Below, in pieces: positions 11,665 through 49,672 of a stretch of 64,000 nucleotides of DNA (its first letter is position 1; the number at the start of each line of letters is the position of its first letter). Position numbers and translations under genes: made by a program. The notes under the pieces are model-generated. The model saw only the letters and a list, made by a program, of their open reading frames with translations, ran no database searches and had not been told where the DNA came from. Source of the DNA: an uncultured Campylobacter sp. (GTDB lineage: Bacteria; Campylobacterota; Campylobacteria; Campylobacterales; Campylobacteraceae); assembly GCA_963529735.1 (NCBI GenBank), contig CAUSAR010000002.1:308-64307 (forward strand), read 5' to 3'.

Positions 11665-11683
11665 TTTAGAATAAAGTCGTGGA

Positions 11684-11710
11684 GCGCCGAAGTCAAATTC
11701 GGCGCCTTTT
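11684..11710 (+). terminator. Intrinsic terminator after aspA
   Basis: GCGCCGAA-gtcaaa-TTCGGCGC forms an 8-bp stem followed by CTTTT. Confidence 0.7.
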
Positions 11711-11751
11711 AAATTTAGTAAGTAAAAAAATCTAATACAAGGAGTTTTCCT

Positions 11752-13095: not shown

Positions 13096-13114
13096 GAATT
13101 TTGAGCCAAATTTA

Positions 13115-13140
13115 GCCGAGACTTCGCTCTCGGCTTTTTT
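13115..13140 (+). terminator. Intrinsic terminator after dcuA
   Basis: GCCGAGA-cttcgc-TCTCGGC stem followed by TTTTTT. Confidence 0.8.
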
Positions 13141-13158
13141 AAATTTAAGGACTTTTTC

Positions 13159-13842
13159 ATGAAACGAATCGGAATTTTAGGCGGCATGGGACCGCTAGCT
13201 ACGATAGATCTATACGCTAAGATCGTAGAGCTCACAAACGCCGCAAAAGACCAGGACAACATCCCTATCGTCATTGACAACCACCCGCAGATCCCAGACC
13301 GCACGGCGTATATCCTGCACGGAGGCGAGGATCCGTTTCCTTTTATGAAAGAGTCCGCGACGAGGCTCAAAAACGCGGGCTGTGAGGCTATCTGCATAGC
13401 TTGCAACACGGCTCACTATTTTGCCAAGCGCCTAACGCAGGAGTGCGGCGTAAATATCCTGCACATAGCTAAAATCGCGACCGCGTCGATAAAGTTAAAT
13501 TTCCCGCACGCTAAAAAGATCGCCGTCATCGCCACCACCGGCACGACAGCGGCTAAAATTTACGAAAACGAGCTGATCGCCGCAGGCCTAGAGTGCGTGA
13601 AAATCCCCGAAAATTTGATGAGCAACATCATGGACTGCATTTATAAAGGCGCGAAGGCAAACAAGCTAAAAGAGTACGTCGAGCTCTTTAACGATACGAT
13701 CGCGGCTATCGAGGCTGATGCGTATATCGCGGCTTGCACGGAGATACCGCTGTTTTTACCGTACGCGACGAAAAAAGATAAATTCGTAGACGCTACTCTC
13801 GAGCTTGCTAAAGCAGCCGTTAAATTCGGCCTAGAAAAATAA
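13159..13842 (+). CDS. Aspartate/glutamate-family amino-acid racemase (aspartate racemase-like)
   Basis: Shows IGILGGMGPLAT and two catalytic-Cys motifs (CIACNTAHYF and AACTEIPL). Confidence 0.85.
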   Translation: MKRIGILGGMGPLATIDLYAKIVELTNAAKDQDNIPIVIDNHPQIPDRTAYILHGGEDPFPFMKESATRLKNAGCEAICIACNTAHYFAKRLTQECGVNILHIAKIATASIKLNFPHAKKIAVIATTGTTAAKIYENELIAAGLECVKIPENLMSNIMDCIYKGAKANKLKEYVELFNDTIAAIEADAYIAACTEIPLFLPYATKKDKFVDATLELAKAAVKFGLEK

Positions 13843-13926
13843 CCAAATTTGCGTCTAATCGGCGCAAATTTACCCCCTCTTAAAACAAATTTTTATAAAA
13901 TACAAGCTAAATTTAAAGGATAAACG

Positions 13927-14685
13927 ATGAAATTTGGCGAATTTAAAAATGCAAAAACTTTAAGCCTGGCAAGCCTGCTTTGCGAGCAAAACCCGCAGCT
14001 AGCAGAGCTGATAAAACAAAACGAATTTTTATATATTTCTTGCTTTGAGGATAAAATTTTAGGCACTGAAAATCTCGTTCGCTGCGAGATCGGCTCGGCT
14101 AGCTACGTGCTGGCGCTGCTTTGTAAATACTCGCTTGACGCGGCTAAATTTGACGAGCAAACGCGAGAATACTTTGAGGGGCTTGACGAAGGATACCTAA
14201 GTGGCGAGTGCAACGTCGGCGAGGAGGAGTTTGAGCAGATCGCGGAGTTTTTAGGTGGTTGCAAAAATATCGTGATCGATAGCTCCTTTTTAGCCCATGC
14301 TGACGCGAAAAATATATTCGAGTTCTTGCAAATGCTCGGCAAAAATGTCGTTTTGGCTGACGGCGAGCAGGCCGAGTTTAAAACGGACGGCGAGCTAATG
14401 CCGTTAAAAGAGCCAGAGAGCTTTGACGGTAGCGTCGTGTTTTTTATGGATGAGACGGACGGGTCAAATTTGAGCGGCGAGGTAAAAGAGCTAATCGGCT
14501 CGGCGTCGTTTGCCGCGGCTGCGAAGGTAAAAGACGGCGATATAGTGAGCGTGCAGGCTAATGGCGCCGACGTTGTGGCTAAATTTAAGTTAGAGCCGCA
14601 GATGAAGGGCACGGTCGCGCTTTGTAGGGCGAAATTCAGCGGATACGCCTTTAAGCTGGTTAAAATCGTAAAAACGGCACAGTAG
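13927..14685 (+). CDS. Hypothetical acidic protein
   Basis: 252-aa ORF with a plausible RBS (AAAGGA). I recognise no family. The antisense 247-aa ORF looks like a shadow. Confidence 0.5.
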   Translation: MKFGEFKNAKTLSLASLLCEQNPQLAELIKQNEFLYISCFEDKILGTENLVRCEIGSASYVLALLCKYSLDAAKFDEQTREYFEGLDEGYLSGECNVGEEEFEQIAEFLGGCKNIVIDSSFLAHADAKNIFEFLQMLGKNVVLADGEQAEFKTDGELMPLKEPESFDGSVVFFMDETDGSNLSGEVKELIGSASFAAAAKVKDGDIVSVQANGADVVAKFKLEPQMKGTVALCRAKFSGYAFKLVKIVKTAQ

Positions 14686-14987
14686 CTAGCAATTTGGCGG
14701 ATGGATTTATCCGCCGAGGCTGTATAAAATTTAATCTCAAAACGAGGCATCGTAGCGTCAAATTTGACTTGGCAAGCATGGTTTTTGGCGTCAAATTTGA
14801 CCGCTGAACTAAAATTCGCTCGCAACCGCGCTACTTCAAAATCCAAATTTTCCCTCTATGCCAAAGTTAAATTTAAGCTAAATAAAATTTTATCCAGATG
14901 TGCGAAATTTAGTAAAAAAATCGCCCCAAAAGCGCGTAATATTCGCTTTTATAGCGCTTTTTAAACGAAAAAGGGTATAATGGCCGC

Positions 14988-17360
14988 ATGAGAAAATATT
15001 TTTTGCTTTTTTTACCGATTTTGGCGTTTTCTTTTAGCCTGAGCGTAAATTCGGGCGCAGAGGACGGCAGGCCATACACAGTGATAAACATCAGCGACGA
15101 GAAGGAATTCGTCTGCAAAGAGGAGATCCTCGCCTACGACCGCAAGCTATATTTTTGCGACGTCGCTAGCGGCGCACTGCCAAAGGTCGACGATAAAATT
15201 TTAGCCCTGGCTGAAGTTAGATTTCGCGAGGAAAAAGGCGGTATGCGTATCTACGTCGTGCCGCGCGTGAGCTCTCGTCTGATCTCGTCTAGCGAGCCTC
15301 TTTACGGCGCATCCGCCGTGCCATTTAGTAAAAACGGCGGCGCAGCCAAACGCCACTCCATCGTGATAGATCAGAATTTAAGCGAATTTAAAAAACAAAC
15401 AAACGCAGGGATAAATTTCGCCCCGATATTTGAGCAGATGACCGCACCTAGCATCGGACCGCTCGATCTAAACAAGGCCCCGATAGAAAGCGGCGATAGC
15501 AACGACATAAATATGTACCTGGATGTGAAAAAAAGCTACGACGCCAAACGCTACGACGACACGATAGCCACGATCCAGACGGCGCTAAGGCGCTATCCAA
15601 ACAGCATTTTTGCCAGCGAGTTTTTGCTATACAGACTGCGCGCTTTGGATAAAATTTTAGACTCGCAAAACAGCTTCGAGGGGCTCGGCGCAGCAGATGT
15701 CGCGAGCGAGGGGCGCGCATGGATGAGGCGGTTCGTGTCGGACGAAAACTACCCCGAGGTACTCTATCTAGTAACCAAAGCCTACCTCAGGCAGGAGCTC
15801 GTTAGCGACGCGAACTACACGCTGGACATCCTCATGAACGAGCATCCAAACTCAAATTTTACCAAGCTAGCCGTCCTTGAGTTTGCCGATAGGCTCTACG
15901 TCACGGGCAGGCAGGACGAGGCGGTAAAGATGTACGAGGACGTGCTGTACTCGGCGCAGACGCTAGACGTCGCTAGCCGCGCGGCTCTGAGCCTCGTGCA
16001 AGGCAGCATTGACAAGGCCAAATTTGACCACGCCAAGGACTTTATGCTCAAAATTTTAAACAGAAATCAAGAGTACCTGCTAAACGACGCGTCAAAACTA
16101 ACGACGCTGGCTGGGGTATTTCACGAGAAAAACATGGACGATATCGCCGCGAGGATATATGAAATCCTGCTCGCTCGTCTAAACAAAAACGACGATGACT
16201 ACGAAACCGTGCTAAAAAATCTAGGCATCGCGCTAACTGGCACGCCGGACACGCAAAAAGCATACGAATACCTAAAAAGATACCAAAGCGAGTTTGCGGA
16301 CGGGCAGTACGCCGCCATCGTGCAAAATGCGCTAGATAAGCTATTTTTCGCCAGAAATGACGAAAACAACGCGACTAAGCTGCACGAACACTACGACGCG
16401 CTTATCGAAAAATACGGCAAAACGGACGTCGGCACTAAGGCGCTAAAAGAGCAGGCCGCGCTCTATCTAAAAGAGCGTAAATTTGACTCCGTCCTACGCT
16501 ACACCCAGGCCGTGCGCGATCTAAACGATACGGACGCTAGCGCGGTATTGGATCAGGCGGCGCTAAATTTAGCGAGTGAAGCCATCCGTCAAAACGACTG
16601 CGTTACGGCTGTAAATTTGACAGAAAACTACGGCGTAGGCGAGAAAATCGGAGCTAAATTTAAGCTCTTTGACTGCTATATGCGCCTTTCTCGCTTCGCC
16701 GCCGCGCACGATCTCGCCTCACAAAATATCCTTGCGCCCGACATGCTCGACCGCGTGGAGTGGCTCATCAAACTAGCCTCCGTTTTGATAAAGACGCAGA
16801 AGTATAACGACGCCTTGCGCGTGGCCGACGAGGCGCTGGCTATCGCATCTAGGCAGGAGTATGCCGACGTCTCGCCCGTGCTTTTTTATAGATTTGAGGC
16901 GCTGATGGGATTAGGTAGGCTCACCGACGCCGCCGCGACGATAACGGCCGTCGAGACGCTACGCAAAAACGACTTTAAGGTCATCGAGCTCTACGACCGC
17001 ATGGCTGAGGCGACGTACGGCGCGAACGACTTTTTAAACGCGTCGGTTTACGCCAAAAAGGCGATCGACCTACAAAAGCGCCTGCATATCGCCACCTTTA
17101 GCCCAAAAATCGACTTTGAGTACATCGGCTCGCTAAGTAAGCTGGATAGACTAGGCGAGGCTTTGCAAGTCGCGCGAGAACTCGTAGATACGCGCCTAGA
17201 TCCCGAAAACAGACTGCGCGCGCTAGCTCAGATCTCGGAAATCTACATCAAACTAAAACGCGAAAGCGAAGCAAAGCCGTATCTACAGGAGTGCGTCGGC
17301 TCAAATCTGCAAAGCTCGTGGAAGGCCATCTGCGCTGAGCAGATGAAGCTCGTGGAGTAA
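14988..17360 (+). CDS. Secreted/periplasmic TPR-like repeat protein
   Basis: Has a signal peptide (MRKYFLLFLPILAFSFSLSVNSGA). The 790-aa body is helical-repeat-rich with many A/L/Y/D-rich ~34-aa units. Confidence 0.7.
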   Translation: MRKYFLLFLPILAFSFSLSVNSGAEDGRPYTVINISDEKEFVCKEEILAYDRKLYFCDVASGALPKVDDKILALAEVRFREEKGGMRIYVVPRVSSRLISSSEPLYGASAVPFSKNGGAAKRHSIVIDQNLSEFKKQTNAGINFAPIFEQMTAPSIGPLDLNKAPIESGDSNDINMYLDVKKSYDAKRYDDTIATIQTALRRYPNSIFASEFLLYRLRALDKILDSQNSFEGLGAADVASEGRAWMRRFVSDENYPEVLYLVTKAYLRQELVSDANYTLDILMNEHPNSNFTKLAVLEFADRLYVTGRQDEAVKMYEDVLYSAQTLDVASRAALSLVQGSIDKAKFDHAKDFMLKILNRNQEYLLNDASKLTTLAGVFHEKNMDDIAARIYEILLARLNKNDDDYETVLKNLGIALTGTPDTQKAYEYLKRYQSEFADGQYAAIVQNALDKLFFARNDENNATKLHEHYDALIEKYGKTDVGTKALKEQAALYLKERKFDSVLRYTQAVRDLNDTDASAVLDQAALNLASEAIRQNDCVTAVNLTENYGVGEKIGAKFKLFDCYMRLSRFAAAHDLASQNILAPDMLDRVEWLIKLASVLIKTQKYNDALRVADEALAIASRQEYADVSPVLFYRFEALMGLGRLTDAAATITAVETLRKNDFKVIELYDRMAEATYGANDFLNASVYAKKAIDLQKRLHIATFSPKIDFEYIGSLSKLDRLGEALQVARELVDTRLDPENRLRALAQISEIYIKLKRESEAKPYLQECVGSNLQSSWKAICAEQMKLVE

Positions 17361-26879: not shown

Positions 26880-26919
26880 AATTTGCTTGCTATAGCATAT
26901 CTTTTATAAAGGATGCGAA

Positions 26920-27375
26920 ATGACGATCGAAGAGCAAAAATTTATCCAAAAGATTTTGGCCGAGCTTGCGCAAAAAGCCATAGAAAAGACTGCAAAGGCG
27001 GTAAAAGGCGCCGACTTTGAAAAAGAGCTCAAAAAAGCCGTTGAGCCGATAAAAACCGCCAAAGAGCCCGATGTGGAAGGCTTTAAAAGGACTCTTACAG
27101 AGCTTGGCGCGGCAGGATTTTTATCGCAGATGAACGAACAAAAAATCCAGGAAAAACTAAGGGTCAAAAAAGAGGAGCTGATGGAGGCTTTAGGGCTAAA
27201 TGCTGATATGAAAAAAGGCCTAAGAGATGAGCTTGAAACCGTACTGGACGATCTTTTGAGCAAATACGAAAAGGAGCTACGAGCTAGTTTGCAAAGCAAC
27301 TCCTTGCTAGAAAAACAGCAATCTTTACAAAATAAAAATTCGTCGATGTTAAGTACGGTTTTGGGCATCGTGTAA
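26920..27375 (+). CDS. Hypothetical Lys/Glu-rich helical protein
   Basis: 151-aa ORF with an AAAGGA RBS. No family recognised. The mirror antisense ORF is rejected. Confidence 0.5.
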   Translation: MTIEEQKFIQKILAELAQKAIEKTAKAVKGADFEKELKKAVEPIKTAKEPDVEGFKRTLTELGAAGFLSQMNEQKIQEKLRVKKEELMEALGLNADMKKGLRDELETVLDDLLSKYEKELRASLQSNSLLEKQQSLQNKNSSMLSTVLGIV

Positions 27376-28294: not shown

Positions 28295-28319
28295 CTCTCC
28301 TTTACGTTAAAGTGCTAAT

Positions 28320-28328
28320 ATTATAGCA
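28320..28328 (-). promoter_or_regulatory. Extended -10 promoter element for hpf
   Basis: A perfect TGCTATAAT (TGnTATAAT) lies on the minus strand about 26 nt upstream of the hpf start, inside the 48-bp gap after the pilin operon. Confidence 0.5.
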
Positions 28329-28342
28329 TATAAAGTATTGTT

Positions 28343-28825
28343 TTAGAGCTTCTGAATCGTGCGTCTGTGAATTCTTATCGGCGGGACATTGGCATTTGCC
28401 GACCTAACGACTACGTCTAATATAACCGTTCCGGCAGATTCCGGGGTCAGTATCGGCACTACCGCCGAACCTCTACCGGCAGCACCGTTGCAAGCTCCTA
28501 TGGTGCCGAGTGCCATATTTACTGTTACTGTTACTGTAAACAAAGAGGTGGCGACGTCGTTGGTTGGAAAAGTTGTTTGTAAAATAGGAGTAGGATTGCC
28601 CGCGTTTAAAAATGCGCAGTTTGCTACTTGCGTGAAATTTGTGTTTAGGAGATTGAAAACAGCTATCTCGGTAGCGCCCTGAGCCAAGAGTTCGGCTTGT
28701 TCTCGTAAAAACACGTCCGATGTTTGTTTTGCCGTAGTTGCAGAAGTATTTAGCGAAAACATAGCCAAAGTAGCTATCAAAACTATAAAAATAATCGCCG
28801 TTACTAAACTAAATCCTTTTCTCAT
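28343..28825 (-). CDS. Prepilin-type minor pseudopilin lacking Glu+5 (GspK/PilX/MshP-like position)
   Basis: The N-terminus MRKG|FSLVTAIIFIVLIATLAMF has a short basic leader, Gly-1, Phe+1 and a hydrophobic helix, but Thr at +5. The start at 28825 overlaps the upstream stop (TAATG). Confidence 0.75.
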   Translation of the reverse strand: MRKGFSLVTAIIFIVLIATLAMFSLNTSATTAKQTSDVFLREQAELLAQGATEIAVFNLLNTNFTQVANCAFLNAGNPTPILQTTFPTNDVATSLFTVTVTVNMALGTIGACNGAAGRGSAVVPILTPESAGTVILDVVVRSANANVPPIRIHRRTIQKL

Positions 28826-29763
28826 TAGTATATCGCCTTTGTTTTGCATACAGTAGTCTCGGCTTCTGCAGGCTCTAGCGATCTGCCGGCGTCCCTTATG
28901 CATAGTTTTAAAACTATAATACCGTTTGCTTCCGTAAAGTTAAATCTCGTTACGTTTGTAGCTAGCAGATCTGAGTTTCCGTTATTGTATTCTTGTCCTG
29001 CCCATGGACGAAAATTATAATGAAGGAATAAGCTAAAATCTCCATTGGCACTAGCCACGCCAGGAACTACCGCATAAGCCGTATGAAGCAAATAGTATTG
29101 TTCCGAGATAAGAGCATCTCTGTAGTTTGCTACACTTAGTATGTTATTTTGACCATTGGCTACTATGGTGCCTATGGAATTTGCATTCGTTCTGTTATAG
29201 CCAAAAGAAGTAGCGGGGTTAAGACTCATATTTTTAAACACTATGCCTATATTGCCGTTGGCTATGCTGGCTGCACTGTTGGTGAGATCTCTTATATTTT
29301 GATCGGCTGAGAAGTTAGGTGCAGCCGCGGCTACGGCCAATCTGCTTCCGGGAGTCGATATTGTTCCGCTTCTTGCGTTTCCGTCTATGTCTGCTATTGC
29401 GGTATTTGGACTACTCAGGTCTGCAAAACCGCTCCATCCTCCGTCCTGAAAGCTCTCGTAGCTATACGTCACCCACTCTAGTATAGAAAAGGTATTGTTT
29501 AGCCCCGCCGCGCTCGTAGATACGAAAGCTCCGTTTCCGTTGGCGGCCGGCTGTTTTCCTATTGTTGAACCCCTAACTCGTATGGCAAGTCTTTTTGAAA
29601 TTTGCTCTAGAACTAATTCGGTTTGCGTTTCTAGGGTATTGATGGCTCTGCTTTGGAGGTAGCTTCTATATATATTAAGAGTCATTTGGATGCCCATATG
29701 CGATAATAGTCCTATTATAACTATAACAACCATTAGTTCAAGTAGCGTAAAGGCTTTTTTCAT
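28825..29763 (-). CDS. Prepilin-type minor pseudopilin (large; PilW/GspJ/MshO-like size)
   Basis: The N-terminus MKKA|FTLLELMVVIVIIGLL is an N-methylation motif with Glu+5. The protein is 312 aa with a C-terminal Cys pair. Confidence 0.8.
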   Translation of the reverse strand: MKKAFTLLELMVVIVIIGLLSHMGIQMTLNIYRSYLQSRAINTLETQTELVLEQISKRLAIRVRGSTIGKQPAANGNGAFVSTSAAGLNNTFSILEWVTYSYESFQDGGWSGFADLSSPNTAIADIDGNARSGTISTPGSRLAVAAAAPNFSADQNIRDLTNSAASIANGNIGIVFKNMSLNPATSFGYNRTNANSIGTIVANGQNNILSVANYRDALISEQYYLLHTAYAVVPGVASANGDFSLFLHYNFRPWAGQEYNNGNSDLLATNVTRFNFTEANGIIVLKLCIRDAGRSLEPAEAETTVCKTKAIY

Positions 29764-29768
29764 TTTAT

Positions 29769-30380
29769 CTACCAGACCTTGGTTAAAATCGCGGGCGCAT
29801 CGCCGATATTGGCCGAATACGCTCGCAGGATTATCTGATGGCCGACCCCTTGGCCTCTGGTGTTTTGGGTTGTTGCCGTTACGGCAATCTCCCGTACGTC
29901 ATTGTCTGCTACGCCGGACATATTTCGCGAGAGATTTACGTTGCTTACCAAATTTGCCGTTATTATGCTATCTCTATCGTATCCTGCGGTGCTAGTTATC
30001 TGGGTACGTCTTCCGTTAAATGAGTTCAAAACGCCTGTTCTGTTTTCCCAAGGTCTACACACTACGCCCACTCTTGCTATATTGGAAAAAATTCTTCTTC
30101 CCTCTTGAGATATACCGTTTGTGGTGTAAAAATTATTTAAACCCCCAAATATAGGAGTCGAAAGTCTTGCGAAAGCGTCCCGTCCGGTGCAACTCCAAGC
30201 CGCGGTAGAGATGATGGCTAGTCTTGTTTTAGCATCCATTACTGTTTCTTGTATTACGGCCAAGCTGTTATTTTCTGATACTCTAGAAAATACATTTGGC
30301 ACTACAGCCATCGTCAATCCCATAATAACGATGGCTAGTATAAGTTCTATCAAAGAAAAGCCTTTTTTTGCTCTTACCAT
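29769..30380 (-). CDS. Prepilin-type pseudopilin
   Basis: The N-terminus MVRAKKG|FSLIELILAIVIMGL has the canonical G|F..LxE motif. The protein is 203 aa. Its ATG overlaps the stop of the giant gene (ATGGTAA). Confidence 0.8.
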   Translation of the reverse strand: MVRAKKGFSLIELILAIVIMGLTMAVVPNVFSRVSENNSLAVIQETVMDAKTRLAIISTAAWSCTGRDAFARLSTPIFGGLNNFYTTNGISQEGRRIFSNIARVGVVCRPWENRTGVLNSFNGRRTQITSTAGYDRDSIITANLVSNVNLSRNMSGVADNDVREIAVTATTQNTRGQGVGHQIILRAYSANIGDAPAILTKVW

Positions 30381-33300
30381 TCTATTCTCTTGCTCGGTTT
30401 ATCTATGATATTATTTAGCCTGCCGCCGCCTTGCGTACCCACGACGTTACCTACGCCCACGTCTGCTCCTTTGTTATTAAGGGACTGTCCTCCCCAGTTT
30501 ACGTTATTTGACGTAAAGTTAACGGTAAAGCGATTTACGGCAGCCAAAGCATTTATCGGGTCAAATATAAGCCAACCTGATGCAGGCATGCTGATGATGT
30601 CCGTACCTACTACGGTGCTTGAAAGTCTCATGTTGCCTATACCGTTTGCCGGAACTGGAGTGGCCGGGGCTATCGTAGTCGTAGCAGCGCCTGCTAGTGC
30701 TCCGCTCGTTCCTTGAGCTAAATTTGTATGGGCCGTATTTACAAACCAATTACTCGCTTGCGGTAGCTGAGTGCCTGTGGCTAGAGTATATATGGCGTTA
30801 TTGCAATCGTTACAATATATGCCGTAGTATAGGTTCGCATTAAAACCAGCTTGCGGTCCGGTGTATGTCGGCGCATATACCCTGCCGTAGTAAAACTGCG
30901 TCGTACTGACGACGGTAGGTCTTGCGTATGCAGCGCCGGCTACGGAGTCTGTATCCGATATACTGCCTATCGTTAAGTCTTGGTTGCTTAAAGTAAATGG
31001 ATTTTTAGGTATATTTACGCTTCTTGCAAAATTTAGCCTTACAGTTACAGGTGCCGTGCCGCCGGTAAAAGCGTTGGCATTTACGCTATATGCGCCGTTG
31101 TTTGCTACGGCGTTTACTTTTCTTACGAAACTAGGCGGATTGTTATCAAAAAATATAATTGCATTTCGAATATCTGCAAGCGTCGCCGCACCGCCGTTGT
31201 TTGTTCTAAAGTCGCCTAAAATTTGACCGATTCCTAATGTAAAATTATTGTTTCTAGAATAGCAACCGGTATGGTATAGCGTAGCAGCCGTCCTGGCAGC
31301 ATCGCCTAATCTAGCCGTTAGATTAAACGTTACGTTTGCTCCCATAGGCGCAACGTTTGACATATATGTCATATTTCCGCCGGCAAAATTAGTTACGGTT
31401 AAATTTTGCGCCGCTATATCATTTGGTACGAATAGCAAATTTTGCTCGCCTCTAGTTTGGGTATCGCAACCTATCTTGCCGTTCGCGTCTTCTGTCGTGG
31501 TATCGCTATCTGTTATGCAGTCGCTAGGATTGCCGCCGGTGCCTCTATCTACGTTTGTCCACTTCGTATCTTTGGCGTGTATGGCGACGTGTCCTATATT
31601 TGGATATACGAAGTCGCTAGTAGTGCCTCCACCTTGGGATATTTTTATTTCTCCTAGTCCGTTAGTGGTATCGGCTTCTAGGTTTATACCGTTTAAAAAC
31701 GTAAAGCCGTCGGTGCAAGTTGCCGGAACTAGAGTCGATCTTCTAAGTGTAATAGGTTTTATATTTGTCGAGTAGTTGGCTGCTGTATTGTTTTCATTAT
31801 CTATGGCTTGTACCCATATATTTTTATACGCTCGTCCTCCGACCATGCTTCCAAAATTTGTCGTATTGGTTGTTTTGTTATAAATTCGCAGCTCCTTCGG
31901 CCTTATCGAAAACGAATCGGAACTACAAACTTTGTGGTCTATATTTTTCGCGTCTTTATATGAAAGTCTAAATATCAAATTTGGATAAGCTTTTTTGATT
32001 AAGATATTTTTTAGATCTATTATGCTTTTGCTGGCCAGATCTGTTTTTAGTACTCGAATCGCTTGGCCGCCTTCGATTACGTTTGGTGCGTTGTCGCAAG
32101 GTTGATTTGCTTCTATTACGTCTACGTAAACGTCGTTGGCAAAGTTAAAATCGTCAAGTTTTTTAACCTCGTTGCCGTTTTCTTCGCTTATGAATAAATT
32201 TACCAATTTGACGTCAAATTTTCTTGCGGCAAGTTGAGTGAATAAATTTTCCGAATCACCCAATGCGCCGAATTTTTTATTTACAACTTTTGATGCTATA
32301 CTTCCTACTCTTAGTTGATATTTTGTTTCGGTGCACTCTTCGATGGCACCCTTATACACTAGCTTTATGCTAGGATTTTCAAAATTTGCGGTATATGAAT
32401 TTCTAGCAAAAGCCTCTCCGAGTACTGTATCAAATTGTATAAAAGCTTGGTTACTACTTCCTATAGTACCGCCGTTGCCTCCGCCAGCACCTTGACCGAC
32501 TAGGAATTTTAGCTTACCTGAGGTATAAGTTTGCAAATTTGTATTATCTGGGTTTTTATCTCCCGCTCCTACGGCGAAGGCTGTTCCTCTTCCGACGTCG
32601 GGTTTTATAAACGTAGTATTATTTATATATGTCGAATTTTTTGGATCTAGGGCAGTATTTATGGATAATTTTTGTGCCTCTTCGTTTCCGTTGTTTACTA
32701 TTTGAAGCCTAACTCTTAGCGTATCCCCTTTTTTTGCGATAGTTTTGTTGCTGGCATTGGTGCTAACCGGTTCAAAGTCTTGTTCGCCAGTTTTATCTTT
32801 ATCTCTAACATATAGTGTTTCTATATAACATACTTTCGGTACATATAGATCGGTGGAAAATGCCAGCATACCCACGGTGGCTTCGTCGCCTTGCACGCTA
32901 CCGCCGCCTTTTTGAACGATCTTTGCAGTTAGTCTTATGTCGGCGGATGTTTGTTTGTTGTTAAGTTTTCCGGTAATATCGTATGTATCTAAATCCATAC
33001 TGGCGTTATACTTTTTGCTCGGATTTAAATGCTTATTAAATTTAGATATAGTGGAGTTAAACTGGTCGCCTTTTTTATTTAGGGTACTATCAAAAATTGA
33101 ACTATACGGCGAATAGCTATCTTTTCTAATCTCTATATCCTCAGCCGAGATCTCGCTCGCTGCGCCGAATGAAAGAGTAGTAAGAGAGGAAACTACCGTA
33201 CCGTTTACGGGAGTATAAAAGCCGCTAACAGTTATGTTTGCGCTCCTGCTGGCTCCTTGACTTAAGTCTAGCGGCGTTAGCGGTTTGATACCGTCAAATA

Positions 33301-34216
33301 TATTAATGCCTTTAGGTTTTATTTTTTTGCCGTCTTTGCTACCAAAGTCATATACTATAACTAGCGCCCATCCTCCGTATCTAGGCGATTGTAGATTGTT
33401 AAACCATTTTCCGTCGGTGTAAGAATACACTGATGGGGGCATGCCGTTGTGAGTTTTGATATCGCCTGCGCTAAAAGTTCTGCTTGCTACGGTGTTTCCC
33501 AGAGATTGTTTTACTATCTCGGTAACGTCGGCGCTTGCTTGATATTGAAATCTCATGCCCCAGCCCGAAAACGACCCCGACCAGAATACGTCTTTTTCTT
33601 GTGCGGTAATATTATAGTATCCTTTTGGCGTTCCGAATCTTACAGTATTAAAATCTTTTATCGTATCAAAGTAGCTTGTTCTGGCCGAATATTCGTTTCC
33701 GATATTCCAGCTTCTGGCAAAACCTCCGGCCCAGTAAAGCCTAGCGAAGACCACTCTCTTGCCTATTATATCATTTGCGATACTCGCTCCGTCGGTATTT
33801 TTCCTGTCGGAAAAGTCAAAAGTCGCTTTTGATGAATTGAAGCTATAGTTTGGATCTTCTTTTTCAAATACAACATCCGTGATGGATGTATGTATCGTAC
33901 TGGAACTTAAAATAGGCCTGTAATTATAGCCGTATCCTTGGGAGCTATTGCCCACAGTTCTTAAGACAGAGGCCCCGATGGTCTCTATATCACCGTATAT
34001 TATCTTTCTTTCTTCTAGTCTTTTAATGCCATACTGGTCTATTACTTCTTCATTTATGACTCTTTTTTGAAGGTTGGCGGTTTCTTTATTGTCTAAATAT
34101 CTGCCAGATGATGCGGAAGCTAAATTATGTTCCAGATAATTTTTATCTTTTACTGCAAAGGCGCTACTTGCGCTTAGTAAAAAAATCGCAACTAGAAAAA
34201 AATTAGAATTTTTCAC
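30374..34216 (-). CDS. Giant (1280 aa) secreted protein of unknown family; candidate pilus-tip-associated protein (functional analogue of MshQ/PilY1)
   Basis: GTG start at 34216 with an AAGGA RBS 7 nt upstream. The signal peptide is VKNSNFFLVAIFLLSASSAFA|VKD. The body is Asn/Thr/Gly/Ser-rich and beta-type. It is translationally coupled to three pseudopilin genes. The upstream 28 codons of the raw ORF overlap fliW and are rejected. Confidence 0.8.
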   Translation of the reverse strand: MKNSNFFLVAIFLLSASSAFAVKDKNYLEHNLASASSGRYLDNKETANLQKRVINEEVIDQYGIKRLEERKIIYGDIETIGASVLRTVGNSSQGYGYNYRPILSSSTIHTSITDVVFEKEDPNYSFNSSKATFDFSDRKNTDGASIANDIIGKRVVFARLYWAGGFARSWNIGNEYSARTSYFDTIKDFNTVRFGTPKGYYNITAQEKDVFWSGSFSGWGMRFQYQASADVTEIVKQSLGNTVASRTFSAGDIKTHNGMPPSVYSYTDGKWFNNLQSPRYGGWALVIVYDFGSKDGKKIKPKGINIFDGIKPLTPLDLSQGASRSANITVSGFYTPVNGTVVSSLTTLSFGAASEISAEDIEIRKDSYSPYSSIFDSTLNKKGDQFNSTISKFNKHLNPSKKYNASMDLDTYDITGKLNNKQTSADIRLTAKIVQKGGGSVQGDEATVGMLAFSTDLYVPKVCYIETLYVRDKDKTGEQDFEPVSTNASNKTIAKKGDTLRVRLQIVNNGNEEAQKLSINTALDPKNSTYINNTTFIKPDVGRGTAFAVGAGDKNPDNTNLQTYTSGKLKFLVGQGAGGGNGGTIGSSNQAFIQFDTVLGEAFARNSYTANFENPSIKLVYKGAIEECTETKYQLRVGSIASKVVNKKFGALGDSENLFTQLAARKFDVKLVNLFISEENGNEVKKLDDFNFANDVYVDVIEANQPCDNAPNVIEGGQAIRVLKTDLASKSIIDLKNILIKKAYPNLIFRLSYKDAKNIDHKVCSSDSFSIRPKELRIYNKTTNTTNFGSMVGGRAYKNIWVQAIDNENNTAANYSTNIKPITLRRSTLVPATCTDGFTFLNGINLEADTTNGLGEIKISQGGGTTSDFVYPNIGHVAIHAKDTKWTNVDRGTGGNPSDCITDSDTTTEDANGKIGCDTQTRGEQNLLFVPNDIAAQNLTVTNFAGGNMTYMSNVAPMGANVTFNLTARLGDAARTAATLYHTGCYSRNNNFTLGIGQILGDFRTNNGGAATLADIRNAIIFFDNNPPSFVRKVNAVANNGAYSVNANAFTGGTAPVTVRLNFARSVNIPKNPFTLSNQDLTIGSISDTDSVAGAAYARPTVVSTTQFYYGRVYAPTYTGPQAGFNANLYYGIYCNDCNNAIYTLATGTQLPQASNWFVNTAHTNLAQGTSGALAGAATTTIAPATPVPANGIGNMRLSSTVVGTDIISMPASGWLIFDPINALAAVNRFTVNFTSNNVNWGGQSLNNKGADVGVGNVVGTQGGGRLNNIIDKPSKRIEW

Positions 34217-34235
34217 TTGGTATTCCTTAAAATTT

Positions 34236-34619
34236 TTATTTCTCAATAAAATCCGAAATTTTTTCAGCCTGTTTATACATTGGATATGCCCATGCATCAA
34301 GGACTATTTGCGAGAGCGTCATATTTGTCATGTTGCAAACGATAGGAGCGATAAAATTTACCGTCGATGTCTCGATCGGAGTGCTCACGACCATGATATT
34401 GTAAATTCTTAGCTCACTTTTGTCGTTTATATCCATCAGCTCCTGATAGTACGTCGGTATATCAAATTCGTAATTTCTCAAGGCGTACGGGTTTATCGCT
34501 GTAAAAGACGTCTCATCGTCCTTGCTTTGAAGCTTTACGAAAAATTGATCCAGTTCTTTTAATTCATAACTTTTAATATGTTCAAAGCCTAAAATCGGGC
34601 TTTTGACTTGAAAAATCAT
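34236..34619 (-). CDS. fliW: Flagellar assembly factor FliW
   Basis: [20 protein letters not shown]...INPY...IAPIV matches the conserved FliW pattern. An AAGGAG RBS precedes the ATG at 34619. Confidence 0.9.
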
Positions 34620-34725
34620 ATATATCTCCTTAATTAAATATTTACTTTTTACGCGAATTGTATCCAAAATTTCCTATTTTTAAGCATAAAATGAAAACAA
34701 ATTTACCGAAAAGCAATAAAAACAA

Positions 34726-37899: not shown

Positions 37900-38426
37900 C
37901 TACTTTAATATCATCAATTTACGATTAAAATTTCATTTATGATCAAGAAAATTTAAAAATTTTGTAAAGCACAAACGCTATGATTTTAACGATATTCTTA
38001 AAATTAGCGAGCATGGCGAAGTAGAGTTTGCATGCAACAACTGTAAAGACTATATCGCGTTTTACTAAAATCGACAAGACGCGTTACAAACAATAGAACG
38101 AAATCGCCGCTAAAATTTACTCAAGCTTTATTGAGCGTGCGTATTTCTTAGTATTTGCTATTTGTGCTTAGGCTTAGCCTGAGATATATGCTTGATCTTA
38201 TTTCTTCGTTTGCTAACATGGTTTGAAGCTTGGAAGATAGGATGGAAGGATTAGTGGATTCTAGGGATTTAGCAAGAGAGGAAAAGGATACTTATTTGGC
38301 GAATAAAGAGACGCCAAATAAGTAAACGATAAAAAACAAAAAAGATATCCTTCGCAAAATCTACTTCCCTAACTATACTGAAATTTACGGCTAAATTTAA
38401 TCACAATAATGTGATTTAAGGCAGGC

Positions 38427-39026
38427 GTGGGTAAAATATGGGAACTTGAATTTGGGTGGGGTGAGATGGAAAAAGATGATAACGAGTTTATGGATTTGCC
38501 TGAAAATATTAAGCTCGATGAGGATGAGTATATCATCTGCCGATATAAAGGAAATCACGTTAAAGAGCACTTTGTTAGGTTTTTATTTGCCTTGCTTTGT
38601 ATTGTAATATTTTTATATACATTGTTTTTTGGACAAAATTTTGAGCAACAAAGCGCATTTGTAAAAGCATGTATTATTTTTTTTATATTTTTTTGCATTT
38701 TACTGGTATATCTTTTTATAACCAATTAGATTCACAAAGGTCTATATTTAACAAATAAACATTTGATATCCTTTAATGGAAATAAATTTGACTTAGGCTC
38801 CATATACATACTTGACACAAGCGCTCGTCAAAATAAAGAATTTTGCGTATGCAACGGATGGAAAAATATCCTGGAAATTAAATGTGCAGAAGATGATATT
38901 AAACTAGATATATTTATATTTTATTTAGTCGATATATCTGGAAATAAAAGTATTTTTAGATTTGGTTCAAAGGAGCTAAGAGCTAAAGCCGTAATGGATA
39001 ATTCGGTTAGATTTAAATTAATGTAA
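38427..39026 (+). pseudogene. bPH (DUF304/YdbT-like)-type membrane protein split by one in-frame TAG
   Basis: ORFs 38427-38729 and 38763-39026 are in the same frame. The only stop between them is the TAG at 38727-38729. The merged product has DEYIICRYKGNH, then 2 TM segments, then LTNKHLISFNG, which resembles the two-TM plus PH-domain layout. Confidence 0.5.
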
Positions 39027-39036
39027 GGAGACAATA

Positions 39037-40310
39037 ATGCTAAGCAGCAAGGATAGCAACGAAACAAAAAGTTTTTACAGAAGAAGATCTTAGAAGAGTT
39101 CCTGGTGTGTGTTTTTTGATACATCTAGTGCGCTGATTTAAACTTTTAAATAAAGGAGATGAATTTGCAAAAAATGGGGCCATTTTTATTGCAAAAGTAG
39201 GATTTGTTACTGGGCTGGTAGCTGATTTAACAATAAATATATCTAAAAATAAAGATGGTAGTATAGTTTATACGATTGCTTCAACAACCACAAAAGATAC
39301 TATAAAATATTATGCATCTTATTGGGCAACTACGACTTTGGCGCTTGCGATTGTTGCTAAAGCAACATTGTTTTTGGGAGCCGGTGTTAATGGCAACAGG
39401 ATTGGCAGTAGTTGGAACAACAAGCTTATTTATAGTTGTATCATATGGCACAGATTATCTATTAAATAATTTAGAAGAAATTATTAATCAATCTATTGAT
39501 CATTATACCAATAAAGAAATTGAACTCTACACTCCTACCATCTACGGCAAAATAACCCAAAAAGAATTTATGATACAAGAGTTAGAACAAAATAATAAAA
39601 CCACAAAAGATTTTTGTATGAGAATGTATCCTAAATTTGCAAGATATGTTCAAACGAGGGATTTAAGCAAAGTAGATATCAGCACGGTTTCAAATTCTGA
39701 TTTTATCCAAAGAATTACGCTCAAAAAACAAAAATGCACTAGCCATAAAAACAGCCTCCGAGGTAGGTAGCGTAAAACAAGCTACCGAGATATTTGAAAT
39801 CATAAACGCTATGCCTAACATCCCAACCGTAACCCTCAACTCCCACACCTACGACATAAGAAACCTTTCAAATTTAGAGATAAGAAATGCGATCGATAAG
39901 ATACCTCAGGTATCTTTCCTACTTTCCAATATCCTGATAAGAACCGGCGAAGAGCTGGATCTGGGAAGCAAGGGAATATACAAAGTAAAAAGCGGAGATA
40001 CTCTCTCAACCATAGCTCAAAGAAACGGTATGGTTACTAAAGAGCTACTAAAGCTAAACACTTGGCTGGTAGATGAAGGCAGAGTATCTTTCCTGCAAAA
40101 CAAGGTATTGGTAGAATCAAGCATACTGGAACTAAACGAGATAGATCACGTCCTAACGGGTGATAGAAACGCCGAAAATATCCTCATAGATGCAAACGGG
40201 GGGAGACGATACTCTAGTGGGCGGTAATAAAAAAGATATACTAAAAGACGGCAATAGTTTGGACGTAACAATGATAAAGACACAAAAAGAGTTCTATAAT
40301 TTTTATTAAA
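39037..40310 (+). pseudogene. Multiply frameshifted remnant of a larger gene with Gly-zipper TM, LysM and RTX-like Ca-binding-repeat segments
   Basis: Coding-looking sequence jumps frame at about 39385, at the A-run 39722-39735 and at the G6 run 40198-40203. It contains KVKSGDTLSTIAQRNGMVTKELLKLN (LysM). After a -1 shift it contains IDANGGDDTLVGGNKKDIL (GGxGxDxL nonapeptide-like). Confidence 0.5.
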
Positions 40311-46690: not shown

Positions 46691-48328
46691 TTGAACTCGA
46701 AACCTAGAAAAAAAGCCGCGAAAAGGCGCTCCAAAAAGGGGCGCTCGCGCGGCGGACTAAAGCTACTACTTTCCGTTTTTCTCATCGCCTGTATCTTGAT
46801 TGCAGGGGCATTTTATCTGCTGGACGTCAGGGTAAAGGTTAAAAGCGACAACGCGCTGATCGCTAAAATCGAGCGGTATTTCGGCGATAAAAGCGAGTCC
46901 GAGCAAAAGCAAAATTTAAGCCACAAACCAAGCCTTTCAGCCTCAAACAGCTCTGAAAAAGTCACCACAAAAGACACGCAAGCCGCCTCAGGCGTGCACT
47001 CGAGAGCAAATTTAACCGATATAAAGGCGCTTTTTGACGAGGCGGATGCTAAAGGTAAAATAAAAATCGGCGGCGAAAAAGCTAGAGCCGAAGAAAAAAA
47101 CGATCAAAATTTGATAAACGAGCAGGCTAAATTTGATAAAAGCGGGCAAGGCGCACCTGCGACCAAAGATAAAATCTCGCCCGAGAGCGTAAATTTAGCC
47201 TCCCGCGACACTTCCGAGCTGGACGGCGCAAACGCCAAAAAGGTCGGCGAGCTAAATTTGACAAATTTAAGCTCTAAAAACGAGCCCGCTAAAACCGCTC
47301 AAAATGGAGGCGATGGTGTCAAATTTGACGCCTCGCAAACGCCTCAGCGAACGCATATTTTTGCAAATTCCGAAGCCGTGATCTTTGACGATACGCCTAT
47401 GTCGCAGGCGCAAAATAACTCCCTCGAGCAGGCGCTAAAAAAAGAAAAAATCCATATCGAATTTAGCGACGCAAAAGATGCCGCAAGCGATCAGGCGGGG
47501 CAGCTCGAAGTAAAATTTGACGCAGAAAACGCGCCGCAAAACTCCGAGCAAAACGAGCAAGAAAAAATAGAAAAAGAAAAGCCTAAAAAGGACGAAAAAG
47601 CCAAATTTTCAGACACAAAAAAGACGGATAAAAAAAGCGCGACCGAGACAAACGAGGTAAAGGCAGCCGTAAAAGCTGGCTACAAACCGCGCCTAGTCAT
47701 CATCATCGACGACGTGGCATACAAGCACCAAGCAGACGCGATAAAATCGGTCAACCTAAAGCTCACGCCGTCCTTTTTTCCAGCCACTTCCGCCCACCCC
47801 GAGACACCTGTTTTGGCCCGGCGTTTTAGCTTTTATATGATCCACCTGCCCATGCAGGCTCTAGGCGGCTTTAAGGGTGCCGAGATCGGTACTCTCACGG
47901 TCGACGACGACTACGAAAAGATCGCTAAAAAACTGCAAAGCATCAAGCGAGACTTTCCGAATCTAAAATACATCAACAACCACACGGGTAGCCGCTTTAC
48001 GAGCGATGCGGCCGCGATGGATAGGATGATGCGGGCGGTGCGGGACGAAAATTTGATATTCGTCGATAGCAAGACGACCTCGCCGACCAAGGTTTACGGC
48101 GCGGCGAAAAAATACTCTATGCCATACATCGCGCGCGACGTGTTTTTGGATCACGACGGCTCAAAAGCGGCCGTGCGAAAGCAGCTAAAATACGCCATCG
48201 AGCTAGCTAAAAAGCGCTCATACGCCATCGCGATCGGCCATCCGCACAAAAACACGATCGAAGTCCTGCAAGAAAGCGCCAAGCTCCTGCAGGAGGTCGA
48301 GGTTATCTACCTAAAGGACCTTTTTTGA
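46691..48328 (+). CDS. Membrane-anchored divergent polysaccharide deacetylase (YibQ family) with a long low-complexity linker
   Basis: TTG start, a basic N-terminus plus a TM segment, about 280 aa of low complexity, then the YibQ-like core (RLVIIIDDV..., NNHTGSRFT, IGHPH). Confidence 0.8.
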   Translation: MNSKPRKKAAKRRSKKGRSRGGLKLLLSVFLIACILIAGAFYLLDVRVKVKSDNALIAKIERYFGDKSESEQKQNLSHKPSLSASNSSEKVTTKDTQAASGVHSRANLTDIKALFDEADAKGKIKIGGEKARAEEKNDQNLINEQAKFDKSGQGAPATKDKISPESVNLASRDTSELDGANAKKVGELNLTNLSSKNEPAKTAQNGGDGVKFDASQTPQRTHIFANSEAVIFDDTPMSQAQNNSLEQALKKEKIHIEFSDAKDAASDQAGQLEVKFDAENAPQNSEQNEQEKIEKEKPKKDEKAKFSDTKKTDKKSATETNEVKAAVKAGYKPRLVIIIDDVAYKHQADAIKSVNLKLTPSFFPATSAHPETPVLARRFSFYMIHLPMQALGGFKGAEIGTLTVDDDYEKIAKKLQSIKRDFPNLKYINNHTGSRFTSDAAAMDRMMRAVRDENLIFVDSKTTSPTKVYGAAKKYSMPYIARDVFLDHDGSKAAVRKQLKYAIELAKKRSYAIAIGHPHKNTIEVLQESAKLLQEVEVIYLKDLF

Positions 48329-49092
48329 ATGTTTTAACCGAGCTTCCTAACGGCCTTTTGCATCTTAAAAAGCCGCCGGCAAAGCTATATTTTGATGGAA
48401 ATTTAGCCCTGCTTGAGCGTCCGATGGTCTCAATCGTAGGCTCTAGAAAAGCCAGTGCTTACACCAGGCAGTGCGTAGAGGCGCTAGCTAGGACGCTCGC
48501 AAACAGCGGCGTTTGCGTGGTTAGCGGAGCGGCTATAGGTGTAGATATCGCCGCGCATAAGGGGGCTTTTCCGCATACCATTGCGGTTTTTGGCAACGGA
48601 CTAAGCAAAATATACCCGCCAAGCAACGCCAAAATCATCAAAGAAATTTATCAAAACGCACTGGCTCTGAGCGAATACGCCCCTGACGAGCCGCCGCTTG
48701 CTTATAGATTTTTGGAGCGAAACCGTATCGTAGTCGCGCTCTCGCAGGCTCTAGTCGTGGCGCAGGCCGACCCTAAAAGCGGCTCGATGCAAAGCGCGCG
48801 TATGGCAAAAGAGCTTGGAGTGCCGATATTTACGCTACCTCAGCGCCTAGGCGAGAGCGACGGGACAAACGAGCTGGTCGCTAGTGGCGCGGCAAATTTG
48901 ATAAACGATTTTGACGCTTTTGCGCTTCGTTTCGGCGGTAAACCCACATCTGTGCAAGAGGATGAGGTGATAAAATTTTGTAAAAACGGCGCGAACCTTG
49001 ATGCGGCTTTGGCGAAATTCGGCGATAAAATTTACGAATACGAGCTCGAAGGCAAGCTGCGAATATCTGGACTTACGGTATTTGCGGAGTAA
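48325..49092 (+). CDS. dprA: DNA processing protein DprA (Smf)
   Basis: Shows VSIVGSRKAS, VVSGAAIGVDIAAHKGA and GSMQSA. TTG start overlapping the upstream stop. Confidence 0.9.
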   Translation: MNVLTELPNGLLHLKKPPAKLYFDGNLALLERPMVSIVGSRKASAYTRQCVEALARTLANSGVCVVSGAAIGVDIAAHKGAFPHTIAVFGNGLSKIYPPSNAKIIKEIYQNALALSEYAPDEPPLAYRFLERNRIVVALSQALVVAQADPKSGSMQSARMAKELGVPIFTLPQRLGESDGTNELVASGAANLINDFDAFALRFGGKPTSVQEDEVIKFCKNGANLDAALAKFGDKIYEYELEGKLRISGLTVFAE

Positions 49093-49297
49093 AATTAGCG
49101 GCTTTTGAGCTCAAATTTACGCCGCGCGAGTTTTGATAAAACGGCGGTAAAATTAGAAGTAAAATTTATCGGCTTGACGGCGGTAAATGCGTTTCGGCGA
49201 CGTTTGATTTTGTAAATTTGACGGAGCGTGGCCATCAAATTTGAGCTTGCCTACCGTCAAATTTATCGCTAAATTTGAGAAAATCTAAAGGACGAAA
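49093..49297. repeat. Intergenic spacer densely seeded with AAATTT
   Basis: About 6 AAATTT copies in 205 bp by eye. Confidence 0.75.
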
Positions 49298-49672
49298 ATG
49301 AGCATAATGGCCATCGACGTTGGGCTAAAACGTATCGGCGTGGCGCTGGCTGTTGGGCAAACCGTGATGCCTCAAACGCCCGTTCTGCGCAAAAATCGCA
49401 ATCAAGCCGCGCGCGACGTTAGCGCCGTTTTGCGCGAATACGGAGCAAAAAAGCTAGTCGTGGGCGTGCCGCTTGGGGGATCTAGCGAGGACGAGATGCG
49501 GCGACGGATCGAGCACTTCGTGTCGCTGCTGGCATTTGACGGCGAGGTGGTCTATCAGGATGAGGCGATGAGTAGCTTTGAGGCGAGCGAAATTTACGCT
49601 GAAAGCAGGCGCGACGGACGGCTAGATAGCATCGCGGCGATGATTATTTTAAAGCGGTATTTGGGACTTTGA
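49298..49672 (+). CDS. ruvX: Holliday junction resolvase-like protein RuvX/YqgF
   Basis: The IMAIDVGLKRIGVAL N-terminus and LDSIAAMIIL C-terminal motif are present. Confidence 0.9.
   Translation: MSIMAIDVGLKRIGVALAVGQTVMPQTPVLRKNRNQAARDVSAVLREYGAKKLVVGVPLGGSSEDEMRRRIEHFVSLLAFDGEVVYQDEAMSSFEASEIYAESRRDGRLDSIAAMIILKRYLGL

Follow-up and report, generated by a model that had tools for sequence, protein, structure and literature searches.

We analyzed a 64,000-nucleotide (nt) stretch of DNA from an uncultured oral Campylobacter (hereafter, the window), in which four closely packed minus-strand genes encode a giant exported protein and three small proteins with prepilin-type N-termini, named here pilin1, pilin2 and pilin3 and, together, the trio. 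The giant and the trio form one hypervariable cassette (28343-34233) in a conserved chromosomal slot. The cassette probably specifies the tip of a filament for DNA uptake or adhesion, the machinery of which is encoded elsewhere. On balance, and with some reserve, the more specific reading that we favor is that of a minor-pilin priming or tip set for a filament of the Cts type, to which the giant would add an accessory tip protein that varies between strains and represents a new family. A function of the cassette in DNA uptake is put forward more tentatively, as a serious possibility and not as the expected outcome. A sequence-only reading of the same DNA had earlier described an orphan operon that links fliW to a giant secreted protein and three prepilin-type proteins, likened to the pilus-tip priming complexes of other bacteria.

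The trio and the giant protein

The giant gene (34216-30374, 1280 amino acids (aa)) starts with GTG, 7 nt past an AAGGA ribosome-binding site, and overlaps the pilin1 gene (30380-29769, 203 aa) by 7 nt (ATGGTAA). After a gap of 5 nt follows pilin2 (29763-28825, 312 aa), which in turn shares 1 nt (TAATG) with pilin3 (28825-28343, 160 aa). Together with fliW upstream, these are the five minus-strand open reading frames (ORFs) that the sequence-only reading had delineated, and ORF calling and direct reading of the junctions confirmed its coordinates and junctions throughout. No phase-variable homopolymers (G/C of at least 7 or A/T of at least 9) were found in the region 28343-34700.

All three small proteins belong to the type IV pilin/pseudopilin superfamily and carry class III signals, as had been claimed earlier. 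Pilin1 and pilin2 both scored above the curated cut-offs of PF07963 (N_methyl) and TIGR02532. For pilin1, which has the leader MVRAKKG/FSLIELILAIVIMGL (the slash marks the predicted cleavage site) with Glu+5 and Pro+22, the values were 27.9 bits (cut-off 21.2; E 1.5e-6) and E 2.5e-5, respectively, and Phe+1, Glu+5 and Pro+22 were invariant in the alignment of 16 orthologues. For pilin2, which has the leader MKKA/FTLLELMVVIVIIGL, Glu+5 and a C-terminal Cys pair, they were 25.9 bits (cut-off 21.2; E 6.5e-6) and E 2.9e-6, with E9 (Glu+5), C288 and C306 invariant among 61 aligned family members. An exhaustive hidden Markov model (HMM) search for the pilin2 family returned 1248 clusters (at 50% identity) at E<=1e-3 and 333 at E<=1e-30. 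Pilin3 (MRKG/FSLVTAIIFIVL) presents the same kind of leader and Phe+1 without Glu+5. Its N-terminus, MRKG/FSLVTAIIF, is kept in 17 orthologues, of which none has Glu+5 (0/17), while two Cys are invariant and the C-terminal FHRRTIQKL is conserved in the alignment. Pfam gave no match for pilin3, and its sole weak match, in NCBIfam, was to the N-terminus of GspK (NF037980, E 0.0036). Known tip sets likewise contain one subunit without Glu+5 (GspK, PilX) among others that have it, and by analogy pilin3 is a candidate capping subunit. Exactly three prepilin-type N-termini, those of pilin1, pilin2 and pilin3, were detected when all six frames of the 64 kb were scanned with a regular expression (regex).

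Structure models were built with AlphaFold2 for pilin2 and for residues 81-1280 of the giant. The pilin2 model (predicted local distance difference test (pLDDT) 91, predicted template modelling score 0.85) contains a helix of 53 residues (7-59) followed by a beta-rich domain, a predicted pilin architecture of a long N-terminal helix and a beta head. The check by profile and fold searches that the sequence-only reading had proposed thus returned pilin-type N-termini and, for pilin2, the pilin architecture, but no known head domain. The likeness to GspHIJK or PilVWX that it had drawn does not extend to the heads, as no solved GspH-K or PilV-X structure was matched in profile searches or, for pilin2, by Foldseek. 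GspJ/PilW-like and GspK/PilX-like heads are therefore rejected as assignments for the present, there being no head similarity in either kind of search.

The giant begins with VKNSNFFLVAIFLLSASSAFA/VKD, a Sec type-I signal peptide that ends in LLSASSAFA/VKD, and has no lipobox. No family scored above cut-off in Pfam or NCBIfam, a profile search of the PDB gave zero matches, and no plasmid was matched by tblastn with the conserved C-terminal region. The first homologue search returned only 'hypothetical' proteins, nearly all of them from Campylobacter. The model, based on a 42-sequence alignment (pLDDT 85), is all-beta and multi-domain, with the last ~40 residues disordered. Foldseek matched it in the PDB only to immunoglobulin (Ig)-like chains (complement C3, PrgB Ig-like domains, S-layer SbsC, a Gram-positive pilus backbone and AgI/II) and in the viral library BFVD only to DUF11 and FN3 proteins. 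All of these matches are generic multi-Ig, FN3 or DUF11 chains, with low template modelling scores. The model itself is a chain of Ig-like beta-sandwiches.

The better-conserved part of the giant spans residues ~760-1245, and the protein terminates in KRIEW. The C-terminal ~500 aa and a terminal (K/R/N)R(I/S)xW are common to the giants of Campylobacter (including C. sputorum), Sulfurimonas, Nitrosophilus and uncultured Campylobacterota, while their N-terminal modules differ (Calx-beta, DUF11, He_PIG, HYDIN-Ig, Big_9 and a lectin-like module). We regard these proteins as a new large family with a conserved C-terminal anchor.

The giant had also been compared with PilY1. Taken as homology, this comparison fails. 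The giant is not a PilY1 homologue, because PF05567 (PilY1) was not matched in it at E<=1 in Pfam (the same library, as a control, detects this domain in Ralstonia PilY1), its model contains no beta-propeller, and hhalign of the giant family profile against Ralstonia PilY1 gave a probability of 0.1. A shared module was nonetheless found in a giant homologue from a Campylobacterota metagenome-assembled genome (MAG; locus L088, 3212-7282), residues 374-518 of which are 38% identical (E 1e-16) to residues 83-223 of Ralstonia solanacearum PilY1. The latter (R. solanacearum OE1-1 megaplasmid, L089 8755-12090) is encoded in a canonical fimT-pilV-W-X-Y1-E operon. This 145-aa module, lectin-like by eye, is missing from the window giant, and the similarity is that of a shuffled N-terminal module, common to two large proteins in minor-pilin operons. 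The L088 giant also had one weak precomputed match to PF28247 (DUF6701_3rd), which we take to be an MshQ-type domain; the match was not reproduced with a local Pfam copy and serves as a lead only.

A conserved slot with variable contents

The window belongs to the C. showae group, because its FliW is 98-99% identical to those of C. showae CC57C and uncultured oral Campylobacter MAGs, and its pilin2 is 97% identical to C. showae CSHOW_0737. The operon had been called an orphan. Instead, it occupies a slot that is conserved phylum-wide, with the recurring order lon-bamD-(fliW)-(proC)-(giant)-pilin1-pilin2-pilin3-hpf (parentheses marking the genes that are not found in every locus) in Campylobacter, Sulfurimonas, Nitrosophilus, Nautilia and uncultured Campylobacterota. 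The order lon-bamD(YfiO)-fliW-giant-trio-hpf was found in C. curvus, Campylobacter sp. GCA_014892495, Sulfurimonas (giant of 1586 aa, pilins of 207, 296 and 160 aa) and an uncultured relative (1184, 201, 303 and 170 aa), and fliW-giant-trio-hpf in C. showae, C. concisus, C. majalis and Campylobacter sp. MOP7. In L088, proC stands between fliW and the giant gene (lon-YfiO-fliW-proC-giant-trio-hpf; 1356, 240, 303 and 163 aa). Nautilia lithotrophica presents fliW-proC-trio-hpf (224, 333 and 140 aa) with no giant, so that proC lies directly ahead of the trio, as it also does in C. geochelonis (L090), where lon-YfiO-proC-trio-hpf (266, 319 and 153 aa) is followed by a giant-like ORF of 1892 aa and fliW is not beside the cassette. 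Nitrosophilus alvini (lon-YfiO-proC-giant-trio-hpf; 1466, 225, 299 and 142 aa) also lacks fliW beside the cassette, and C. sputorum (giant-trio-hpf; 1667, 240, 312 and 171 aa) has neither lon nor fliW there. In every locus examined hpf lies downstream of the trio, and the giant stop codon overlaps or almost touches the pilin1 start in Campylobacter, Nitrosophilus, Sulfurimonas and uncultured Campylobacterota.

The presence of the giant was counted in the 59 species-representative loci with at least 7.5 kb downstream of fliW. An intact ORF of at least 900 aa stands ahead of hpf in 53 of them, the trio directly follows fliW in 4, and the giant is fragmented in the remaining 2. Split giants were observed in L047 (C. 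concisus RMIT-O23; 10503-16103), where pilin2 is split too, and in L066 and L081 (10389-12975); these split ORFs could be due to pseudogenisation, phase-off variants or assembly errors. The 1892-aa protein of C. geochelonis (L090 8001-13679) has partial homology to the giant and lies 3' of hpf, which indicates that the position of the giant relative to the trio is not fixed.

The slot is conserved, but its contents differ strongly between strains. Compared with C. showae CC57C, FliW and HPF of the window are each 98% identical at the amino acid level, and the giant is only 40%, pilin1 51%, pilin2 68% and pilin3 62% identical. We also compared the window with eight related genomes (L002, L003, L009, L011, L013, L018, L021 and L027) at the nucleotide level. 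The cassette flanks are ~85-94% identical in all eight. In six, identity drops sharply at the fliW stop codon (34233-34246) and returns near 29834 (the 3' end of pilin1), in the 3' end of the giant gene (30937 in L018) or only at hpf, whereas the other two, L009 and L021, carry the allele type of the window, with 92-93% identity throughout. At least three allele types are found, one of which (L005/L008/L011) has no giant. The joint divergence of the giant and the trio is the behavior expected of interacting, surface-exposed components, and such extreme divergence in near-identical backgrounds suggests surface exposure.

The proposed link to Cts and the rival explanations

Relative to lon, bamD, fliW and proC, the cassette has the position that ctsT has in C. 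jejuni (fliW-proC-ctsT-Cj1078-Cj1079), as judged from C. jejuni locus-tag numbering. There, Cj1075 is FliW (PMC4894983), Cj1076 is proC and Cj1077 is ctsT, listed as a 100-aa 'putative periplasmic protein' among the competence genes (PMC8308473), and Cj1078 is annotated as a 'putative periplasmic protein' (PMC4202330). In PMC10893306 (with reference to Wiesner et al. 2003, J Bacteriol 185:5408), ctsT is scored together with ctsG, ctsW and ctsRDPXEF to explain transformation defects. The Cts system has been described as type II secretion system (T2SS)-like, and CtsG, CtsT and Cj0683 are the known pilin-like competence proteins of Campylobacter (PMC8308473, PMC10046745). The earlier claim that no such complex is described for Campylobacter thus overlooked ctsT, a competence gene at the same position (PMC4894983, PMC8308473, PMC10893306). 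Because fliW-proC-trio is found in Nautilia and proC-trio in C. geochelonis, ctsT, Cj1078 and Cj1079 are, by position, the likely C. jejuni counterparts of the trio. No C. jejuni protein was among the homologues listed by two profile searches and an exhaustive representative search, 20 representatives looked up by cluster were mostly metagenomic proteins, and a FliW-anchored scan of genome contigs returned loci of the C. showae and C. concisus groups only. Since ctsT has the same chromosomal position, the filament in Campylobacter would most likely be the Cts transformation apparatus.

In agreement with the sequence-only reading, genes for a secretin, a GspE/PilB ATPase, a platform protein or an A24 peptidase were not recognised in the 64-kb window; the check covered ORFs of at least 90 aa, with Pfam run on the 20 that were not identifiable by eye and the remainder identified by eye only. 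In the mechanism that we propose, the assembly ATPase, platform protein, secretin, prepilin peptidase and major subunit would be encoded elsewhere. The trio would enter the inner membrane by means of the class III signals, and a prepilin peptidase would cut before Phe+1. The three subunits could then form a cap that primes filament polymerisation, with pilin3, which has no Glu+5, on top and pilin2 and pilin1 beneath it. The giant, exported by Sec, may dock on this cap through its conserved C-terminal ~500 aa, with the disordered tail that ends in RRIxW. The growing filament would push the giant through the secretin, such that its variable Ig-like N-terminal region becomes exposed at the surface, where it might serve as a binding module for DNA, the host or another surface.

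Other explanations should be weighed against this mechanism. The sequence-only reading had tied the cassette to fliW (34619-34236, minus strand, 127 aa; Pfam FliW E 1.9e-26, NCBIfam PRK13282 198 bits), which ends 19 nt ahead of the giant gene in the same direction. No terminator-like site is predicted in this 19-nt gap, so read-through from fliW into the giant gene is plausible, and fliW is probably co-transcribed with the cassette. As fliW is also found upstream of the cassette in many Campylobacterota, one could argue that the cassette is part of flagellar biology, for instance as a surface structure that is associated with the flagellum or coupled to motility. Possible read-through is, however, no evidence of shared function. 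Moreover, in Nautilia and L088 the cassette is separated from fliW by proC, C. sputorum, Nitrosophilus and C. geochelonis have no fliW next to it, the hypervariable block starts exactly at the fliW stop codon, and none of the four cassette proteins resembles flagellar components in Pfam or NCBIfam. The link is therefore positional only, and fliW and hpf look like conserved neighbors and nothing else, which makes a flagellar role highly improbable and corrects a likely annotation trap.

Two other explanations retain the trio as pilin-like subunits and differ in the part played by the giant. The trio might be the tip of a T2SS-type pseudopilus and the giant its cargo, a large adhesin or S-layer-like protein driven across the outer membrane by the Cts/T2SS-like machine, to be released or retained at the surface. 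Members of the families are named 'type II secretion system protein' by NCBI, the weak N-terminal matches of the trio are to GspH, GspG and GspK, the giant resembles secreted Ig-rich adhesins and S-layer proteins and, as noted, Cts itself has been described as T2SS-like (PMC8308473, PMC10046745). Yet the Gsp matches in NCBIfam are confined to the N-terminal helix (residues ~1-60) and lie far below cut-off, the anchor-like C-terminal region and the translational coupling to pilin1 favor a stoichiometric partner over a substrate, and the trio is kept where the giant is absent. We thus consider a cargo role improbable. Slightly less probable still is that the trio is a self-sufficient minor-pilin set and the giant an unrelated adhesin that repeatedly landed in a permissive, recombination-prone slot. 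Such a history would fit the absence of the giant in 4 of the 59 fliW loci and in Nautilia, its fragmentation in 2 loci, the place of the giant-like ORF after hpf in C. geochelonis and the shuffled N-terminal domain content. On the other hand, giants of four genera have homologous C-terminal regions (~500 aa) and a shared terminal RRIxW, which points to a common origin and not to repeated capture. In addition, the overlap at the start codon of pilin1 has been retained, and the giant and the pilins diverge together.

A tip or priming complex with its machinery elsewhere, as had been proposed from the letters, is thus the best available reading, although the giant is no PilY1 homologue and the pilin heads match no solved pilin. 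Several observations nonetheless weigh against it and should be considered. Profile searches of the PDB matched only the N-terminal helix of pilin1 and pilin2 and gave no match for pilin3, and the pilin2 model had no Foldseek match at E<=0.001. Position -1 of pilin2 is Ala and not Gly, nearly invariantly so in its family, and Ala at this position makes a poorer prepilin peptidase substrate. The giant model has no beta-propeller, and none was found among its top 50 Foldseek matches; a DUF6701/MshQ signature was likewise not matched in the window giant by Pfam or NCBIfam. The giant is absent from Nautilia, C. gastrosuis and the L005/L008/L011 allele type, and is therefore dispensable there. The trio is linked to CtsT, Cj1078 and Cj1079 by position and not by sequence comparison, and CtsT has 100 aa as opposed to ~200 aa for pilin1. 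Gene lists of 14 related loci from four genera contained no filament machinery within 8-10 kb of the cassette, so guilt by association offers no help. Finally, so strong a diversification between strains is unusual for a competence pseudopilus that is confined to the periplasm.

As for the rest of the locus, hpf (ribosome hibernation factor; 28294-27758, minus strand, matched in Pfam and NCBIfam) lies directly downstream of pilin3. Because it continues in the same direction, the transcription unit may extend beyond pilin3. The 48-nt spacer ahead of hpf (28295-28342) contains a strong ribosome-binding site and a TGcTATAAT that resembles an extended -10 element, and hpf probably has its own promoter; a terminator-like hairpin of 8 pairs is found 3' of it (27749-27729). 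Further away, 14 kb from the cassette, dprA (DNA-processing protein A, a transformation gene; 48325-49092) stands in a row with a divergent polysaccharide deacetylase gene and ruvX, with small overlaps (46691-49672), and this set also adjoins the cassette region in C. geochelonis (L090). Past lon, the region 38001-40300 has a GC content of 0.33, compared with ~0.44, and holds only short ORFs, including one for a LysM-domain protein (39811-40227); this small region may have been acquired or have degenerated. At 26904-27375, two ORFs on opposite strands overlap fully (154 aa on the minus strand, 151 aa on the plus strand) and neither has a Pfam match, the Lys/Glu-rich plus-strand product being the more protein-like. 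A 790-aa protein with a signal peptide, an N-terminal DUF7494 and several TPR repeats is encoded at 14988-17360.

With regard to significance, how Campylobacter first captures DNA is unsettled in the cited competence literature, and the cassette is a concrete candidate for the distal end of the filament. The giant family could act as a receptor or adhesin, at a position that is conserved across the whole phylum. The cassette could also be relevant to strain typing, susceptibility to phages, adhesion to the host and barriers to gene flow in oral and gut campylobacters, of which C. showae, C. concisus, C. curvus and C. rectus have been linked to periodontitis and inflammatory bowel disease. A broader proposal, speculative and rather unlikely in its full form, is that the Campylobacterota share an unrecognised filament tip in which three lineage-specific minor pilins with novel heads carry, in place of PilY1, an Ig-rich family of more than 1000 aa with a conserved C-terminal anchor ending in RRIxW. 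In Campylobacter, this tip would be the surface receptor end of the Cts DNA-uptake pilus, and its multiple, strongly divergent alleles in the oral C. showae/C. concisus group would imply that phages or host immunity exert selection on a structure so far regarded as a periplasmic pseudopilus.

Comparison with known filament systems

The closest parallels are found among systems in which minor pilins are encoded together with a large non-pilin protein. In the type IVa pilus, FimU-PilV-PilW-PilX-PilY1 of P. aeruginosa and M. xanthus likewise combine minor pilins, one of them without Glu+5, with a Sec-exported non-pilin of more than 1000 aa. A Sec-exported non-pilin inside a minor-pilin operon, as PilY1 is, describes the giant as well, given its signal peptide and its 7-nt overlap with pilin1. 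PilY1 is also conserved in its C-terminal part and variable in its N-terminal part, and one relative of the giant, that of L088, shares the N-terminal lectin-like module with Ralstonia PilY1. Unlike this system, the cassette has three pilins and not four or five, their heads are unrelated by sequence and Foldseek, the giant has no beta-propeller, and its gene comes first and not after pilX.

The tip of the T2SS, GspH-GspI-GspJ-GspK, resembles the trio in that a small subunit with Glu+5, a larger one with Glu+5 and one without it follow each other in the I-J-K gene order, and the only weak HMM match of pilin3 is to the GspK N-terminus. However, GspK is the largest subunit of its set and pilin3 the smallest of the trio, and the cassette presents no match beyond the helix, no gsp operon and an additional giant. 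MshO, MshP and MshQ of the mannose-sensitive hemagglutinin (MSHA) pilus also place minor pilins beside a beta-rich protein of ~1200 aa, but there are no msh machinery genes near the cassette and no DUF6701 match in the window giant. In Thermus thermophilus, ComZ-PilA2 includes a large, beta-rich non-pilin among minor pilin genes, which is the proposed tip of a DNA-uptake pilus. ComZ thus resembles the giant in kind and place, but has ~550 aa and a different architecture, and the giant showed no similarity to it in PDB profile or fold searches.

Within Campylobacter, the ctsT locus of C. jejuni differs from the cassette in that it is not known to include a giant, and in a CtsT of half the length of pilin1; the cited Campylobacter competence literature does not describe CtsT as a minor pilin. 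The two loci are alike in their chromosomal position and in that the machinery (ctsRDPXEF and ctsG in C. jejuni) is encoded elsewhere. Minor pilins with a large tip protein are thus a known kind of system, and part of the cassette probably corresponds to the known ctsT locus. What is new is the trio as a phylum-wide set of minor pilins with unclassified heads, the giant family and the strong allelic diversification of both.

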